Shown: piece after piece, positions 2,631-56,962 of the stretch
Numbering within the stretch: the stretch's first letter is position 1
Layout: every line of letters begins with the position of its first letter
Sequence record: OL656110.1
Strand: one strand, 5' to 3'
Source: Escherichia phage vB_EcoM-RPN242
Length of the DNA stretch: 64,000 nucleotides
Program-made: the position numbers and the translations under genes
The notes under the pieces: generated by a model
The model's database searches: none
The model's input: the letters and a program-made list of their open reading frames with translations, nothing else
What the model was told of the DNA's origin: nothing

Positions 2631-3359
2631 TTACTTCAGCGCGTTCTTCAGATTATCGGAACCAATGCTGTTGATGACACCTCCGGCGCAGATATCTTTC
2701 GCCCACTCTGAGATCACGTTGGCAAAAGAGAAGTTAAGACACTTACCAACCATGTCTTGGATATGGGCTAACTCTGCTGCAATACCGTTCGTGATGTCCT
2801 GAGCAATAGAGGCTACTGATGCGACAGCAGTGTCGATGGCCTGAGTAACTTCAGCAGCCAGTGCCTGAATAGCATCAAGACCAGCACCGACGCCCTGAGC
2901 TACCAACTCAGCCAGCTCATTCATCTTGTTTGTGATAGTTGTGAGAACACTTTGCATGGTGTTGATCCACTGTTTGCCGAGGTTCTGAATAACCCCAAAT
3001 GCATTATTGATCAGATCACAGTTGTTCGGTTCTCGACCTATAGACTTCAGGGCGGACTTATACGACACAGATGTACCGATGCGGGAATATGCCTCGTTCA
3101 CTGACTGGTCGCCATAGTTGTTCAAAGTAGTGATGCTGTTGTTGGCTGAGTTGAACATTGCTGTAGATTCGTTGAGTTTGGCTGTAGTCAACCCACCTGC
3201 CGTCAGCGCTTCCTGAATCTGCGCATTTCCGGTGTTAGCCAGTGACGCTGTAGTCGCCTTACCACTGGTGATTAACCCCTGTGAGGCGCTGCTGAGGGAC
3301 GGGAGAGGATTGGTAAAGGCGTTGCCCTGTGATAGGGCGTCATAGATCTGTGCGTTCAT
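2631..3359 (-). CDS. late protein, Ala/Ser/Thr-rich, likely virion-associated, 242 aa
   Basis: Track start 3401 lies upstream of the late promoter; re-called to ATG at 3359 which follows GGGGGTATTTTCTT. Confidence 0.6.
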   Translation of the reverse strand: MNAQIYDALSQGNAFTNPLPSLSSASQGLITSGKATTASLANTGNAQIQEALTAGGLTTAKLNESTAMFNSANNSITTLNNYGDQSVNEAYSRIGTSVSYKSALKSIGREPNNCDLINNAFGVIQNLGKQWINTMQSVLTTITNKMNELAELVAQGVGAGLDAIQALAAEVTQAIDTAVASVASIAQDITNGIAAELAHIQDMVGKCLNFSFANVISEWAKDICAGGVINSIGSDNLKNALK

Positions 3360-3383
3360 AAGAAAATACCCCCATGGATGATG

Positions 3384-3394
3384 GGGGTATTTAG
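3384..3394 (-). promoter_or_regulatory. late promoter motif CTAAATACCCCC with inverted copy at the ribosome-binding site
   Basis: Minus strand reads CTAAATACCCCCATCATCCATGGGGGTATTTTCTT-ATG; 11-12 bp inverted repeat AATACCCCCAT / ATGGGGGTATT. Confidence 0.6.
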
Positions 3395-3608
3395 GGATCA
3401 TGGTAGTTTGTAAACGAAGTTGGACCAGAACTTACGAACAAACTTCTTGACATAAACCATTCGGTTGGCGTATTCCCCATCCTTCAGGTCATTGTAGGTC
3501 TCGATCCCTACCGCGCCCAAGAAGTACGCCGTGAAGATATAGCAGAACAGATTGATGACGACAAACATGATGTATCTCCGCTGTGTGTACTCAATTATTT
3601 ATGGTATG

Positions 3609-4031
3609 TTACAAAAGGCGCTTGGTCTTCGGCTTACCCATTAGAGTGATATCCACAGGCAGGCCAGCTTTCTTGCAACGGTTGATCATGTCCAGGGTGC
3701 CAGTGGACGAACCATCCCACATCGCAATCGGATACACTTCCAGCTTGGTCTGTCTGACGAGATCCAATGCCTTGTCTAACATGTCCTGATTGCGTTTGTT
3801 GCCCATCCCTTTCCCATACTTTTCATAATAGCTCGGAGGTATTGGCATAGGAGTGATATGAACATAATTGATTTCAGCCCAGTCACGGCAAATCTTGTCC
3901 ACACCAGAGGCTTCACCCTCAATCAGTGTATAGACCTCACGAGGATCGAGGAGTTCGTCCAGCTTGGCGAATACCTTATCCCGCTCGGTGATTGAGCGGG
4001 AACCCGTAATGAGAACGATATACTTCTTCAT
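3609..4031 (-). CDS. hypothetical protein, possible Rossmann-like SLOG/DUF2493-type fold
   Basis: MKKYIVLITGSRSIT...LIEGEASGVDKICRDWA pattern; start at 4031 or 4049. Confidence 0.45.
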   Translation of the reverse strand: MKKYIVLITGSRSITERDKVFAKLDELLDPREVYTLIEGEASGVDKICRDWAEINYVHITPMPIPPSYYEKYGKGMGNKRNQDMLDKALDLVRQTKLEVYPIAMWDGSSTGTLDMINRCKKAGLPVDITLMGKPKTKRLL

Positions 4032-4035
4032 AGAA

Positions 4036-4356
4036 TCACAGCGCCCCAAGATTGCCGATTACGTACAGGGAGCACAGAGGAGTACCTGACGAACGAGGTT
4101 CGATCGTCATCCCGCTCAGGCGGATCAGTTCCAGTAAGCCGTCAGTGGTCTGATACGCGCGTGTCGAACCGTTCGGTCGATATAGCTCCAGCTCAGTTCG
4201 CCCTTCCTTTATTGCATTTCGAATGCGAGTGAACACACTGTGGTCGCCGAACTTCTGTTTCAGAAGATCCAGCTTGGTGGTCAGGCGGCGACGTGGTTTG
4301 CGCGCACGAGGGTTCTCTTTTACGACCGCTTCTAAAATCGGGATGCTGTTAGCCAT
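4036..4356 (-). CDS. hypothetical protein, 106 aa
   Basis: ATG with AGAGGA upstream. Confidence 0.5.
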   Translation of the reverse strand: MANSIPILEAVVKENPRARKPRRRLTTKLDLLKQKFGDHSVFTRIRNAIKEGRTELELYRPNGSTRAYQTTDGLLELIRLSGMTIEPRSSGTPLCSLYVIGNLGAL

Positions 4357-38070: not shown

Positions 38071-38081
38071 GGGGTATTTAG
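38071..38081 (-). promoter_or_regulatory. late promoter CTAAATACCCC with inverted repeat
   Basis: CTAAATACCCCTAGATGAAACGAACACATTTAGGGGTATTTGAA-ATG. Confidence 0.6.
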
Positions 38082-44864: not shown

Positions 44865-44941
44865 GGTCCTGTAGCTCAGTGGTAAGTAGCAGTGAACTCA
44901 TAATTCATTGGTCGTTGGTTCAAATCCAACCAGGATCACCA
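44865..44941 (+). tRNA. tRNA with CAU anticodon (Met or Ile2)
   Basis: Hand-folded cloverleaf: acceptor GGTCCTG/CAGGATC, anticodon loop CTCATAA, T-arm GTTGG-TTCAAAT-CCAAC, encoded CCA. Confidence 0.75.
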
Positions 44942-45193: not shown

Positions 45194-45282
45194 GGAAGGT
45201 TGCCCGAGATGTTTAAGGGACTCGACTGCTAATCGAGTGGGGCTTTTAGCCCCCGAAGGTTCGAATCCTTCACCTTCCGCCA
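45194..45282 (+). tRNA. tRNA-Ser (GCU) with long variable arm
   Basis: Acceptor GGAAGGT/ACCTTCC, anticodon stem CTCGA/TCGAG with loop CTGCTAA, variable arm GGGGCTTTTAGCCCC, T-arm GAAGG-TTCGAAT-CCTTC, CCA. Confidence 0.75.
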
Positions 45283-47670: not shown

Positions 47671-47681
47671 CTAAATACCCC
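47671..47681 (+). promoter_or_regulatory. late promoter CTAAATACCCC with inverted repeat, plus strand
   Basis: CTAAATACCCCATGCAAACCAGTGTGGGGTATTT-ATG. Confidence 0.6.
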
Positions 47682-50598: not shown

Positions 50599-52016
50599 AT
50601 GACCGTCTTCTATACGAACGTTGCCCGCCGGGGCAATGACCTGTTGATTCGAATCGCAGATGACATGGGTAATCGCCGTCTGTTGAAAAAGAAATTCGAA
50701 CCCACTCTCTATTTACCCACGGCTGATTATTCAAATGTTGAAAAGGTCGGCCTGCTCAACGAACCCCTGGTCTCCAAGAAGTTCCCTGACATGCGCACTG
50801 CTGACAACTACCTTGAAGAGTACAAGGAAGTCCAGGGTGCAGCCATTTACGGGCAGACCGATTATGCATACCAGTTCATCGCCCATAGCTTTCCTGGAAA
50901 GATTGAGCCGGATTACTCCAACATCCATATTGCTAACCTCGATATCGAAGTGTTCTCCGCCGGGTGGAAAGATGGAAAGATGACCAAAGGTCCATTCCCT
51001 CACCCAACCATTGAGCAGCAGACGTTCAAAGGGAATGAGGCGCGCATTCGCCGCTTCCATCAGCAGGTACTGGCCAACCATGACTTCATCCGTGAGCACT
51101 TTCCCAGTTCCTTTATCAGCAACAACGTCACTGATCAGTTCCCTATCATTGACAGCAACGGTAAGATCACCCAAGACATGAATGCGGCGTTCCCCATTAC
51201 CCTGATCCAGCTTCAGGACATGGCGACCAATAAGTTCATGGTGTGGGGTATGCCGTGCGCGAAGGATCGTGCGAAGTTCAGATACGATCCAGAAGACGCG
51301 GAGATCGGTGGACTTGAGGTGGAGTACAAGGAGTTTGTCACCGAGCAGGATCTGCTGCGATCTTTCCTTGACTTCTGGTCACAGCGTCAGTTCGACGGCT
51401 GGACAGGCTGGAACATTGAGACGTTTGATAGCCCTTATCTTGTTGAGCGCATGAATCAGGTTCTGGGTGAGGCTGAAACGTCGCGCCTCAGTCCTTGGGG
51501 TATCATTAAGAAGCGTATCATTCGCGATAAGAAGGGCGATATCACGACGTATCAGTTCGTGGGTTGCCCTATGCTCGATTATATGCAGATCTACAAGAAA
51601 CACACGTACACCACCCGTGAACGCTACTCTCTTGACTGGATTGCGTATTGTGAGCTGGGTGAGAAGAAGATGGACTACAGTGAGAGCAAGTCGCTCTTTG
51701 ATCTGTACTTCAACGACTACTGCAAACACACCCGATATGGTATCAAAGACGTTAAGCTGGTATGGCGACTTGAACAGAAGCTGCGCCTGCTCCAGCTGAT
51801 GTTCGTCCTGGCCTACCGCACCAAGTCCAACTATGAGGACGGCCTGGGTACTGTGGCTCCGTGGCTGGCCATGTGCTATTATCGCCTGTATGAGAAGGGG
51901 ATAGTGCCTAAGATCCAGCGTGTATACGATGGTCCGACCGACTTTGAGGGTGCATACGTCATGGATGTGACACCAGGAATCTACTTCTGGGTCTTCTCTG
52001 AGGACTTGAACTCCCT
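50599..52016 (+). CDS. DNA polymerase, family B, exon 1 (N-terminal and exonuclease region up to motif A)
   Basis: N-terminus MTVFYTNVARRGNDLLIRI... resembles T4 gp43; frame ends at ...SEDLNSL, the first half of motif A. Confidence 0.85.
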
Positions 52017-53199
52017 TAAGTTAGCAGCATAGGGGCTTTGGTTGGCGACAACCATCGAATAACTCTCTTAATTGCTGGGAAGTCTCTTTAGAGATAATCA
52101 GCAGCCAAGGTCGGCCACGAAGACCTAAATACTCTGTAACCACGGTGAAGGAGTAAGGTCATGAAGGAAATCAAGAGTCTGTTCTATCGAAATGATTTGG
52201 TAATTGAAGAATCTAAGATAGAAGAATATTTGAAGTTCTGTAAGGAACACAGTTATGATGGTGATGGATACAGTGAACGCCATCATATACTGCCTCAGGC
52301 GCATTATCCTGAGTTCTCTAAAGAAGAATGGAACATTGTAAACCTGTTATATAAAGATCATGTAGAGGCTCATCGCCTGTTGCATGAAGCATTACCAGAA
52401 GATAAATCAGCGTTCTTCGCCTACTTCATGATGAAATCCCATAACGGGGAACTAAGTGAGGAATTGAGAAGAAAGAATGTTGAAATGCTGACGGGAGAGG
52501 GAAATCCTTCGAAGAGGGAAGATGTCAGAAGAAAGATATCCAAATCTAAGAAGGGTGTTAGAAGAGCAGATATGAAGGGTAAGGCTTATTTCGGCGCTGA
52601 TAAAGAAACAGCTGAAAGAATTAAAGCCAATTCCAGTCTTGTTCACAAAGGCACTGTCCCCGTAAGACTCCTGGATGGTAGTGTTATCAAAGTTTCAACG
52701 CAAGACCCGAGATATTTGAGTGGTGAGTTGAAATGTATAATAGGTGCAAAGAAAGGTCAGGTGGGACCAAACACCGACCCAAAAGCGAAGAAGAAATTTA
52801 AAGATTCTTTAGAGAAAAGGAAGGAAATGTTTGCCAGAATGAGTGGGGAAGAAATAACCACTCATTGCTTGACACAACAGGATTTAGGTAAGAAGACTGT
52901 AGAGTGGGGCAAGTTGGCAAGAAACTTCAAACGACTCTTTGGTTACGCTGGGTTAAACCCAGATGATTTCCTTGAAGTAGTGGGTGACAAGGTTCAACGA
53001 CTATCGAAAGCAAGACCGACGACTAAGCGTCTGATCTGAAGCGAGTAGAGTAGGGGCAAGCGCCTCGAAATGGAGAGAATCTCTAGACAGTTCTGGAGAT
53101 TGTGATATAGTCTGGCCTGTATGGTGACATACAGCAGTGTTCGGTAAACTGAATGACGAACACGGGGGATGAAATAGCGAGCATCCCTGAACATAAGCG
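52017..53199 (+). mobile_element. group I intron carrying an HNH homing endonuclease gene
   Basis: R-like element GTTCAACGACTA at 52992-53003 and S-like GATATAGTC at 53104-53112; 5' exon ends in U, intron ends in G; splicing gives DLNSL|YPHIIQQYNLGPETI. Confidence 0.7.
52161..53039 (+). CDS. HNH homing endonuclease (intron-encoded)
   Basis: ERHHILPQ...NIVNLLYKDHVEAHRLLHE is an HNH motif; GGAG upstream; 3' end overlaps the intron core. Confidence 0.8.
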   Translation: MKEIKSLFYRNDLVIEESKIEEYLKFCKEHSYDGDGYSERHHILPQAHYPEFSKEEWNIVNLLYKDHVEAHRLLHEALPEDKSAFFAYFMMKSHNGELSEELRRKNVEMLTGEGNPSKREDVRRKISKSKKGVRRADMKGKAYFGADKETAERIKANSSLVHKGTVPVRLLDGSVIKVSTQDPRYLSGELKCIIGAKKGQVGPNTDPKAKKKFKDSLEKRKEMFARMSGEEITTHCLTQQDLGKKTVEWGKLARNFKRLFGYAGLNPDDFLEVVGDKVQRLSKARPTTKRLI

Positions 53200-54781
53200 A
53201 TATCCACACATCATTCAGCAATACAACCTCGGTCCAGAGACTATCGTTGGCGACAAACACCAGCGCCGCGAGATTATTGAGGCTATGTGTGAAGAGCTGG
53301 CTGCTCAGATGAATAACATGGCAACGCCGATGCACAAACGTCGGTTGATGAAAGCCCTTCACGACAAGCTGTTGCGTGCGGTTGACGAACGCCTGCAGGT
53401 TGTTGATGAGTTGGTTGCCCTGGGTGAGTTCCACTTTGAAACCCTGCGCCGCTACAACGTGTCGTTCACGCCGAACGTTCAATTCTTCAGCAACGAGAAG
53501 ATGTCGTTCCTGTCTGAAATCATGCGTGGTATCTACAGCGACCGTAAAGTAGAGAAGGCCAAGGGTCTGAAGTATGAGCAGTGGGCTGGCTGGTGTAAAG
53601 AGATGTCGAAGGGCGACTTCCATCTTGAGTCTGCCATGAAGTCTCGCTACTATGACCCAGAGTGGTATGAAGAGCACAAGAACATTGATCTTGATGCCCT
53701 GACCGAAGTGATGAAGAAGTGGGAAGACCTGGGCGTCGCTCAAGATACCCTACAGCAAGGTCTGAAGATCTTGATGAACGCAGGTTATGGCGCTATCTCA
53801 AACGTCTGGTTCAAAGAGTACTTCAACCTCAACATTGCCGAAGCCATCACCACATCCGGTCAGCTGATCAACAAGTGGAACAAGCGTTACACTGATGACT
53901 ATCTGAACAAGCTGTGTGGTACAACAGGCCAGGACTTCGTCATCGCAGGGGATACCGACTCCAACTACATCTGTATTGAGCGTCTTGTCAAGCAGTTGTG
54001 GCCTGATGTTACTGACCATCATGCTATGGTTGATAATATCGACCAATGGATCAAAGACAACTACCAGCCGAAGACCAATGAGTGGGCACAGCTTCTGTGT
54101 AACACCATGAACGGATTTGAACAGCGCATGGTGTGGGAGCGTGAGGTCATTGCGTCAGCCGCTGTCTGGCGAGCCAAGAAGATGTATGCCATGGCCGTGT
54201 ACGACAGTGAGGGTATCAAGTATGAGAAGCCGAAGATCAAGTTCAAAGGTCTGGAAGCCCGCAAGTCCACCACGCCGGAATGGTGTCGTGAGCGCCTTGT
54301 CAAGTGCTATGAGAAGATCCTACTCGGCACCGAAGAGGAAGTACAGACGCTCATCTCCCAGTACAAAGAGGAGTATATGAAACTCTCTGTAGACGATATC
54401 GCCAAGGCGTCAGGCGTGTCCGACATAGAGAAGTGTGTGGCTGCTGACGGATCGTTTATATCTGGTGCTCATTTTGCTGCCAAGGCGTGTGTGGGCTACA
54501 ACCGTCTGGTTGAGAAGAACGAAGATCTGGGTCTACCGATGATCGAGTCGGGTGATAAGGTACAGATGGTGTTGTTGAAGCCGGGCAACCCGTTTGGGCA
54601 GAACTACTTTGCATATCCTGAGTTCTTCCCAGAGGAGCTTGGTCTGGGCAAATGGGTGGATTATCAGGCGGCCTTTGAGAAGTCCTTCATTGATCCGATT
54701 CAGTCTATCCTCGACGTGGTCGGCTGGTCACACAAGCGCCGTGTGAACCTTCTTGCCATGATGCAAAAGAAGAAAGGTTGA
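53200..54781 (+). CDS. DNA polymerase, family B, exon 2 (motif A second half, motif C, thumb)
   Basis: Begins ...YPHIIQQYNLGPETI; contains VIAGDTDSNYI (motif C). The track's ATG at 53153 lies inside the intron. Confidence 0.85.
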
Positions 54782-55970: not shown

Positions 55971-56276
55971 GTGCAAGAACAATCCAAGTTTGGGGAAACC
56001 CCAGACAAGCGTTCCGGTGATAGCGACATGGATAGCGTGATTAACCATGTGAACAACTTCATTCGCCAGCAGGAGACTCCAACTCCTATCGGTGCAGCCA
56101 AGGCTCTTCATGATGTACTGGTGAAGATCGGCCAGCGCTCTGAAGCGGATGAAATCTTCTATAACTTCGACGACCAGTATAAAGTTAAGTTTGAAGAGAA
56201 TGGCTGCCCACAGGTTGCTGTGTTCTGGGCACCTTGGCTGGGCGGCGTGAGCTGGCGTATTGAGGATGCTGTGTAA
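55971..56276 (+). CDS. hypothetical protein, 101 aa
   Basis: GTG start with strong AGGAGG 6 nt upstream. Confidence 0.5.
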   Translation: MQEQSKFGETPDKRSGDSDMDSVINHVNNFIRQQETPTPIGAAKALHDVLVKIGQRSEADEIFYNFDDQYKVKFEENGCPQVAVFWAPWLGGVSWRIEDAV

Positions 56277-56962
56277 TGCTGTCGCTTTACCTGATCACGA
56301 ATCTCGTCAATCATAAATTCTATATCGGTGTCACCTCAGAACCGGATAGGCGGTTGGCTGAGCATAAGTGTGGTCAGGGGAGCATTGCATTACAACGAGC
56401 GTTCAAGAAATACGGTGAAGACCAGTTCAAGTTTGAAGTTCTGTTCCGAGGGAAAGATTCGGTTATCCTTCAGATAGAGTCTGAACTGGTCTGCCAGGAG
56501 ATCCTTGACTCTGGGTGGTGCTACAACATGGTCGTCGGGGGTGGGAAGCCTCCATTGGCCACGCCTAATTCATCCGCAAAGAGTGCTGCAACCCGCAAAC
56601 GTTTGATCGCTGAGGGTAAGATCAAGCCACCTCCCCGCATATCGGCTGAGTCACAAAGAAAGGGTGGTGAAACCAGAAGGAAACTGATTTCCGAGGGAGT
56701 GATAAAGAAGCCATTACCTCCACCTTCAAAAGCCCAGAGGCGAGCAGGTGAGACAAGGAAACAGTTGCATGCTCTTGGCCTGATAGACATTGGTCCTGGC
56801 CGCGATGAAACGATTTACAAATGGCAGCACAAAGATGGTCGCATTGTTGAGTTAAGAAGATGCGATATGGAACTTCAATATGGCCTCCCTTCTGGTAATA
56901 TAACGAATCTCTTGAAAGGTAGGGCTAAAACATGTCTCGGTTGGAGAATAATGAATGGCTAA
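56276..56962 (+). CDS. GIY-YIG homing endonuclease with C-terminal NUMOD-like repeats
   Basis: LYLITNLVNHKFYIGVT...RRLAEH; three repeats of TRK.L...G.I; paralogous to 13218..13931. Confidence 0.8.
   Translation: MLSLYLITNLVNHKFYIGVTSEPDRRLAEHKCGQGSIALQRAFKKYGEDQFKFEVLFRGKDSVILQIESELVCQEILDSGWCYNMVVGGGKPPLATPNSSAKSAATRKRLIAEGKIKPPPRISAESQRKGGETRRKLISEGVIKKPLPPPSKAQRRAGETRKQLHALGLIDIGPGRDETIYKWQHKDGRIVELRRCDMELQYGLPSGNITNLLKGRAKTCLGWRIMNG

Follow-up and report, generated by a model that had tools for sequence, protein, structure and literature searches.

In this study, the interruption of the DNA polymerase gene of Escherichia phage vB_EcoM-RPN242 was analysed in a 64,000-nucleotide stretch of its DNA (sequence record OL656110.1; hereafter the window). 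The segment 52017-53199 on the + strand is very probably a group I intron of the IA type, mobile, self-splicing and similar to the nrdB intron of phages T4 and RB3, which lies within the leucine codon of polymerase motif A and carries the gene of a MobE-like endonuclease of the HNH type. Such an intron had been proposed earlier from the letters of the DNA alone (below, the sequence-only reading). The evidence that carries this finding consists of the exact boundaries of the insert, the restoration of one polymerase open reading frame (ORF), a covarying RNA fold, the homology of the endonuclease and a population signature of lateral transfer.

The source phage belongs to the Ackermannviridae (Vi1-like, Aglimvirinae); its polymerase region shares 96.9% identity with that of Escherichia phage vB_EcoM-ZQ1, and its polymerase exons share 99% identity with those of phage PC3. 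Three ORFs, all on the + strand, were found at the locus. The upstream one, 50599..52032, contains DNA_pol_B_exo1 (Pfam PF03104, 6.9e-17) and terminates in ...DLNSLKLAA-stop, in agreement with the sequence-only reading, in which the polymerase frame was said to stop after ...DLNSL. The downstream one, 53153..54781, contains DNA_pol_B (Pfam PF00136, 8.6e-10) and includes YPHIIQQYNLGPETI, which holds the remainder of motif A, again as had been read. The third, 52161..53039, encodes 292 amino acids and lies between the two polymerase ORFs. For this phage and for dozens of other Ackermannviridae, GenBank records split the polymerase into two or three coding sequences (CDS) or carry the remark 'unable to determine coding region'.

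The limits of the insert were determined by alignment of three allele states. Phage AV101 has a single, uninterrupted polymerase CDS of 3000 nucleotides (nt); PC3 has an insert of 465 nt without an ORF; and an ORF-bearing insert of approximately 1183 nt is present in the window, LIMEstone1, LPST94 and SeF6a. In the window, the insert is exactly 52017-53199 (1183 nt), with U52016 as the final base of exon 1, G53199 as the final base of the intron and A53200 as the opening base of exon 2, so the splice sites deduced earlier coincide with those fixed by the AV101 allele. Exon 1 ends in ...GAC UUG AAC UCC CU, where CU supplies bases 1 and 2 of the motif A leucine codon, and exon 2 begins with A UAU CCA CAC, where A completes the leucine codon and is followed by YPH... 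The predicted spliced junction is ...AACUCCCU/AUAUCCACAC (the slash marks the junction). Removal of 52017-53199 in silico kept the frame and gave an ORF of 3000 nt and 999 codons with motif A restored as DLNSL/YPHII; the product reads ...SEDLNSLYPHIIQQ... and was identical to the uninterrupted AV101 polymerase at 996/1000 positions.

A covariance-model search for a group I intron had been named as a check in the sequence-only reading. At the gathering threshold, the Rfam scan of the whole window returned two tRNAs only and no group I match; this miss is attributed to the 0.9-kb ORF inside helix P6a and not to the absence of an intron, as both a permissive scan and the PC3 allele were positive. 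In the permissive scan of the insert, RF00028 matched in two halves with the ORF between them, namely the 5' half (P1-P6) at 52007-52250 with 19.1 bits (E = 0.036) and the 3' half (P6'-P9) at 52874-53134 with 31.2 bits (E = 9e-06), both of which score below the gathering threshold of 50 bits. The ORF-less 465-nt copy of PC3, whose retained parts are 98.6-99.4% identical to the window, scored 58.6 bits against the gathering score of 50 (E = 4.4e-13).

For a comparative test of the fold and boundaries, nine further loci were reached via homologues of the internal ORF, down to approximately 30% identity over the alignment of these homologues (A1). They comprised an Ackermannviridae phage of Vibrio (L006), a T4-like contig carrying gp32, polymerase and uvsX (L013) and seven metagenomic contigs, and the comparative set held 11 diverged intron copies. 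The insertion point was the same in 11/11 copies, in a family-B polymerase at D-x-x-S-L/Y-P. Moreover, exon 1 ended in a U opposite a G of the guide sequence in every copy, with the U.G pair formed in the window by U52016 and G52032 kept throughout, and the terminal intron base was G in 11/11 loci, which bears out the G that had been placed at the intron 3' end. A GGGG guide was found 10-20 nt 3' of the exon 1 end in the related loci. In L017, the guide is GGGC, AGC replaces UCC as the serine codon and the exon reads GCCU, a compensatory change between exon and intron. In the window, P1 is extended by pairing of UA 52017-18 with UA 52030-31.

Complete (100%) pairing of hairpins derived from minimum free energy follows from their definition, and weight was put on the helices defined by anchors and on an unguided MAFFT alignment. 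The structure of the window was scored on this plain alignment of the 11 copies, with shuffled alignments (500) and 3' partners slid by 1-3 columns as controls. Standard pairs occupied 87.7% of cells, compared with 71.6% in shuffled and 38-45% in slid controls; pairs changed on both sides numbered 53, compared with 32 and 21-29; and the covariation score was 0.454, compared with 0.178 and 0.10-0.13. On none of the three measures did any of the 500 shuffled alignments reach the observed value. Helices P1-P9.2 are thus supported by covariation across the diverged copies.

The core helices P3-P8, including the P3/P7 pseudoknot, were recovered in this set, with P4, P5, P6 and P8 kept and P7 invariant. 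The anchor-defined helices were almost completely paired: P1 in 44/44 cells, P3 in 66/66, where five of six positions had changed on both sides, and P6 in 32/33, as C-G in seven copies and A-U in four. P8 showed changes on both sides in 9/10 pairs. P6a comprised 4-15 base pairs (bp) in every copy and differed in sequence in nearly every one, its two strands being 852-914 nt apart and its 3' strand falling within the 3' end of the ORF. The elements P2, P5, P7.1, P7.2, P8, P9, P9.1 and P9.2 were hairpins of varying sequence in 11/11 copies, and GNRA loops usually capped P2 and P9. The R element GTTCAACGACTA and the S element GATATAGTC stand exactly at 52992-53003 and 53104-53112, where they had been located; within them, the P7 strands proper are GACUA 52999-53003 and UAGUC 53108-12. 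By inspection only, P10, the pairing of the guide region with the beginning of exon 2, covers 2-3 bp in the window; in L011, L013, L016, L017 and L018, it covers 4-5 bp. Many group I introns can do without P10. Every core helix of the window is intact, and so are the terminal G and the G.U pair at the splice site.

The closest known ribozyme is the nrdB intron of T4 and RB3, which shares with the present intron identical R and S elements, the AAGC loop of P7.2, the P9.2 loop UUAGCGAG and a 3' tail of the CGAACAUAACG type, with identities of 83% across 59 nt and of 77.5% across 89 nt (RB3); for the 3' core, the identity to the nrdB intron is 77.5-80%. Both introns carry their ORF in the P6a loop, from where it extends into P7, and a late-promoter-type element stands 5' of it. 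Because the P7.1 and P7.2 hairpins between P7 and P3', which differ in sequence among copies, are present in 11/11 and the RB3/T4 nrdB intron is 77.5-83% identical with the same layout, the intron is assigned to subgroup IA and described as T4 nrdB-like, an assignment in which IA2 is not formally set apart from IA1 and IA3. The two introns differ in host gene, nrdB there and DNA polymerase here, and in that I-TevIII is not detectably related to the present endonuclease; the reading frame through the R element gives VQRL here and FND-stop in I-TevIII.

The internal ORF, whose presence at 52161..53039 agrees with the sequence-only reading, matched phrog_12434 'HNH endonuclease' in PHROGs (1e-159). 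Pfam, NCBIfam and PDB phmmer searches with this ORF gave no match, and the profiles A1 and A2 gave no meaningful match against PDB, the matches to GFP being spurious. In alignment A1 of 20 homologues, H41, H42, H67 and H71 were invariant and N58 was at least 90% conserved; NUMOD3 was found in 7/20 family members. Comparison of A1 with RB3 MobE by hhalign gave a probability of 97.4% (E = 1.4e-11) over 73 columns that include HHI[LV]P...N.V.L...H..AH, and RB3 MobE itself has a match to Pfam HNH that falls short of the cut-off (E = 0.0012) and also contains NUMOD1. Prior work describes an N-terminal HNH domain common to the Mob proteins and the nicking of nrdB by MobE in vivo (PMC2790892). Because of this work and the hhalign homology to MobE, the assignment of the ORF product as a MobE-like, HNH-type homing endonuclease is supported; the HNH label given to it earlier is upheld through significant homology to MobE, and its backing is indirect. 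A relationship to I-TevIII was also considered and was rejected, as the homology was not significant by BLASTP or hhalign (E = 1.6 and 0.09).

The two enzymes have a homologous N-terminal catalytic domain and a modular architecture of the NUMOD type. MobE of T4/RB3, however, is encoded by a free-standing gene beside nrdB without a promoter of its own and mobilises the nrdB intron in trans (PMC2790892), whereas the gene described here is intron-borne and has a late-promoter-like motif to itself, and the C-terminal halves are unrelated. Located in the P6a loop, the gene shares sequence with the ribozyme at its 3' end: its last 20 codons (52980-53039) double as the P6a' and P6' strands, as the R element/P7 and as the greater part of P7.1, and the first base of its UGA stop codon (53037-53039), U53037, is the final P7.1 nucleotide. 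Within this segment, 52980-53003 encodes ...VVGDKVQRL, and VQRL(S/E)K, the translation of GUUCAACGACUA, is conserved in endonuclease homologues of approximately 30-37% identity.

The sequence-only reading had named as its alternative that the polymerase consists of two assembling polypeptides, encoded by ORFs 50599-52032 and 53153-54781 around a free-standing endonuclease gene. This arrangement is known from 43A/43B of Aeromonas phages 25 and 44RR, where a T4-type family-B polymerase gene is likewise broken by an insert associated with a homing endonuclease, so truly split family-B polymerases do occur in T4 relatives (PMC2988022); furthermore, both ORFs are open, the second has an ATG at 53153, and GenBank records give two 'DNA polymerase' CDS. 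The Aeromonas polymerases, however, are two co-purifying polypeptides with no ribozyme, whereas a covarying group I fold is present here and would be left unexplained as a functionless structure. In 5/11 loci, the stretch from the nearest in-frame stop to the 3' splice site contains no ATG, GTG or TTG, the stop being one codon away in L011 and L016 and abutting the tyrosine codon in L017. The YPxxI...PET segment is still conserved as protein in these start-less loci; because no start codon is available for it, its translation has to pass across a spliced junction. In the window, the ATG at 53153 falls within the loop of P9.1 and lacks a Shine-Dalgarno sequence, its duplex with the anti-Shine-Dalgarno sequence having -3.0 kcal/mol compared with -6.4 kcal/mol at the polymerase start and -8.3 kcal/mol at the endonuclease start. 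A split at this point would also separate the catalytic aspartate segment of motif A from the Tyr-Pro that follows, and in PC3, PH4 and A221 the ribozyme is intact despite loss of the endonuclease ORF. Taken with these observations, two separate polypeptides are very improbable.

To the same slight degree, it is conceivable that the insert is a decayed intron, which is removed only with a host or phage factor or is retained with the polymerase gene defective. P10 is weak and the Rfam score of the window is below threshold, both of which would fit decay. Against this, the core helices, the terminal G and the splice-site G.U are all intact in the window, copies 98.6-99.4% identical are carried by several isolated, viable phages, and the polymerase is essential, with exons that are 97-99% identical to the AV101/PC3 genes and undisrupted in frame. 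An intein, or bypass of the insert during translation, is ruled out by the in-frame stop at 52030-52032, four codons into the insert (KLAA-stop), although family-B polymerase motifs are classic intein sites; the internal ORF is also equipped with a Shine-Dalgarno sequence and an ATG of its own, and Pfam detected no Hint/intein domain.

In the mechanism that we infer for a self-splicing intron at this site, the polymerase pre-mRNA would fold into P1-P9.2 and follow the pathway that is standard for group I introns. A free guanosine, bound at P7, would attack after U52016, which would be held by its G.U wobble to the guide GGGG 52032-35; the 3'-OH of exon 1 would then attack after G53199, and ...CU would be joined to A UAU... 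to give the message for a single polymerase of 999 residues. In read-through polymerase transcripts, the leader hairpin would hide the ribosome-binding site of the endonuclease gene, which would be expressed late from the CTAAATAC motif. In co-infecting relatives, polymerase alleles that lack the intron would be nicked or cut by the endonuclease, and recombinational repair would subsequently copy the intron and adjoining exon sequence into the cut allele (homing). The coordinates of the exons, ribozyme helices, endonuclease gene and regulatory elements are collected in Table 1.

Table 1. Features of the interrupted polymerase gene, its group I intron and the intron-borne endonuclease gene (window positions)
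Feature	Positions	Strand	Support
Exon 1, family-B DNA polymerase, N-terminal and exonuclease part	50599..52016	+	ORF list; Pfam PF03104; AV101 boundary
P1: exon CCCU 52013-52016 with internal guide sequence GGGG 52032-52035	52013..52035	+	44/44 cells paired, 11 introns
Group I intron, IA, T4 nrdB-like, 1183 nt, terminal G53199	52017..53199	+	Rfam; AV101 boundary; covariation; nrdB similarity
P2 hairpin UGGUUG-GCGA-CAACCA, GNRA tetraloop	52039..52054	+	6-bp stem, sequence differs in 11/11; 6/6 pairs change on both sides
P3 5' strand CUCUCU, partner 53072-53077	52063..52068	+	66/66 cells paired; two-sided changes at 4-5 of 6 positions
P4 UGCUGG 52073-78 with UCAGCA 52098-103, around P5 hairpin 52082-52095	52073..52103	+	Rfam; P4 97% paired, P5 covaries
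P6 5' strand GCC 52104-06 and P6a 5' strand GUCGGCCAC 52110-18, partners 52980-52993 across the ORF	52104..52118	+	
Leader hairpin, 3' arm over Shine-Dalgarno AAGGAG 52148-52153, 5' arm overlapping the promoter-like motif	52122..52160	+	-14.5 kcal/mol, z = -3.08
Late-promoter-like motif CTAAATAC, 28 nt 5' of the endonuclease ATG	52125..52132	+	Over-representation; conservation; LIMEstone1 annotation
Homing endonuclease gene, 292 amino acids: MobE-like HNH-type N-terminal domain and NUMOD3-type DNA-binding region	52161..53039	+	PHROG; alignment A1; hhalign
P6a 3' strand GUGGGUGAC 52980-88; P6 3' strand GGU 52991-93; R element/P7 5' strand GUUCAACGACUA 52992-53003	52980..53003	+	
P7.1 53013-53037 and P7.2 GGGGC-AAGC-GCCUC 53053-53066	53013..53066	+	Both in 11/11 copies; typical IA extras
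P3 3' strand GGAGAG 53072-77; P8 53078-53101; S element/P7 3' strand GAUAUAGUC 53104-12	53072..53112	+	Rfam alignment
P9 53117-34 (GUGA loop); P9.1 53137-63; P9.2 53165-88; 3' tail GAACAUAAGCG to G53199	53117..53199	+	
Exon 2, DNA polymerase	53200..54781	+	Pfam PF00136; AV101 alignment; spliced ORF of 3000 nt

The late-promoter-like motif CTAAATAC occurs 10 times in the window compared with 1.27 copies expected, at 47671, 48166 and 52125 on the + strand and at 38081, 34813, 32151, 20235, 9690, 3394 and 197 on the - strand, and its usual form is CTAAATACCCC. Each of the 10 copies precedes an ATG on its own strand by a short distance; for nine of them an ORF was called, and the copy at 197 is at the window edge. 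Moreover, a promoter-like motif is kept in the diverged introns, where it reads TATAAATA in the T4-like contig L013, and a 'putative late promoter' is annotated at the corresponding position in the LIMEstone1 record. For I-TevI/II/III, it has been described that the ribosome-binding site is masked in read-through early transcripts and that late transcripts, which begin within the hairpin, are translated (PMC2988022). The endonuclease of the present intron is probably made late in infection as well. The bases that follow most CTAAATAC copies (ATACCCC) are complementary to the bases before the ATG (GGGGTAT). Analysis of these elements suggests a family-wide design, in which a late promoter and a leader hairpin would limit translation to late transcripts, as in the T4 genes e, soc and I-TevI.

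The distribution of the intron among phages bears on its mobility. Approximately 32/267 related phage records hold the intron, and AV101 and others are without it. Between LIMEstone1 (Limestonevirus) and SeF6a (Kuttervirus), the ribozyme parts are 99.3-99.4% and the endonuclease genes 94.8% identical, whereas the exons are 73-78% identical. Because conservation between genera is much higher for the intron (99%) than for the exons (approximately 75%), these comparisons indicate active homing. Between the window and LPST94 (Kuttervirus), intron and endonuclease gene are 98.6-99.4% identical. In exon 1, a patch at 51099-51798 is 96-100% identical between these two and 51799-51998, just 5' of the intron, is 78-86% identical; in exon 2, the first approximately 200 nt are 93-97% identical and the distal part 77%. 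The LPST94 polymerase gene is thus a mosaic of several events rather than a single co-conversion tract, because the 200 nt directly 5' of its intron are only 78-86% identical despite the 96-100% patch further 5'.

Several copies have lost or disrupted the endonuclease gene. In PC3 (L002, 1919-2383), PH4 and A221, a natural mini-intron was found, from which two deletions have taken out the endonuclease ORF, and its ribozyme, including P6a', is intact. The PC3 copy equals the window intron minus 52163-52819 and 52841-52901, and the two deletions are bounded by short direct repeats, GAAGGAAAT at 52163/52820 and GAGTGGGG at 52841/52902; because of this relationship, PC3 carries a derived mini-intron in which the ribozyme was kept after loss of the endonuclease gene. 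In L006 (the marine Vibrio phage 1.244.A, 1672-2551), the endonuclease gene is broken into two ORFs, and the ribozyme has a perfect 12-bp P6a. The same polymerase gene contains an additional insert downstream, at 3338-4226. The copies with an endonuclease, with a deletion and with a disruption match what is expected of a homing element that undergoes gain, decay and loss.

The element is the orthologue of the 'putative intron I-LimII' of Dickeya phage vB_DsoM_LIMEstone1 (HE600015), which has the same insertion point and length (1183 nt), ribozyme parts 94% identical and an endonuclease gene 82% identical to those of the window; the LPST94 record carries an I-LimII intron note as well. Adriaenssens et al. 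2012 inferred I-LimII from split ORFs only, without an RNA structure, splice sites or a splicing test (PMC3296691), and no experimental work on the intron, its RNA structure or its splicing was found in the literature searched. In Table 1 of that paper, I-LimII is given as MobE-like yet is placed in the GIY-YIG group, an entry that appears to be an error because profile comparison puts the endonuclease with the HNH-type Mob enzymes. The text of PMC3296691 also confuses which introns belong to the polymerase gene and which to uvsW. LIMEstone1 differs from the window in a second polymerase interruption, I-LimIII, of which the window has none. In LIMEstone1 and other Dickeya phages, I-LimIII (L003 3521-4410) contains an ORF on the opposite strand without a Pfam match, and its region in LIMEstone1 gave no Rfam group I match at the gathering threshold. 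The identity of the window to LIMEstone1 falls to 61-71% around 53499-53799.

Polymerase genes of other phages carry elements of the same kind. I-HmuI of SPO1 and I-PfoP3I of cyanophage Pf-WMP3 (IA2; PMC3428280) are associated with group I introns in essential polymerase genes and are nicking HNH endonucleases; these polymerases belong to family A and are interrupted at other sites, and the likeness drawn here is one of kind of element.

A broader proposal, which we regard as evenly poised, is that the copies at the motif A codon form a single widespread intron lineage, present in Ackermannviridae of Escherichia, Salmonella, Dickeya and Vibrio, in at least one T4-like phage and in uncultured relatives. 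This lineage would be chimeric, with a ribozyme of the nrdB type and a nuclease of the MobE type; the last 20 endonuclease codons would be constrained by their second role as P6a', P6', P7 and P7.1, the conserved C-terminal peptide VQRL(S/E)K would be a protein 'shadow' of the catalytic core, and ribosomes translating the endonuclease would unfold the ribozyme, so that strict late expression would be needed for production of the polymerase.

The intron is real, well supported and mechanistically conventional, and general knowledge of group I introns is unchanged by it. Its main value lies in annotation, as the junction CU/A UAU (52016/53200) allows the polymerase to be entered as a single joined gene of 999 residues. 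Furthermore, close relatives used for biocontrol and therapy hold the intron with its endonuclease, the intron alone or no intron, which makes them a compact natural homing system, and the mosaicism of the exons shows that phage genera currently exchange genes by way of the intron.

Other features of the window were recorded in addition. The preprint 10.64898/2026.02.27.708514 describes an HDV-family ribozyme in Ackermannviridae; the gathering-threshold Rfam scan of the window gave no match to this family, and no further search was made. The two tRNA genes lie at 44865-44938 and 45194-45279 (+ strand; RF00005, 63 and 54.6 bits), and the second has a long variable arm. Approximately 1.5 kb 3' of the polymerase gene, an ORF of 228 amino acids at 56276-56962 (+ strand) encodes a free-standing GIY-YIG homing endonuclease (PF01541, 5.2e-08; phrog_19446, 1e-102), the second mobile nuclease of the polymerase neighbourhood.

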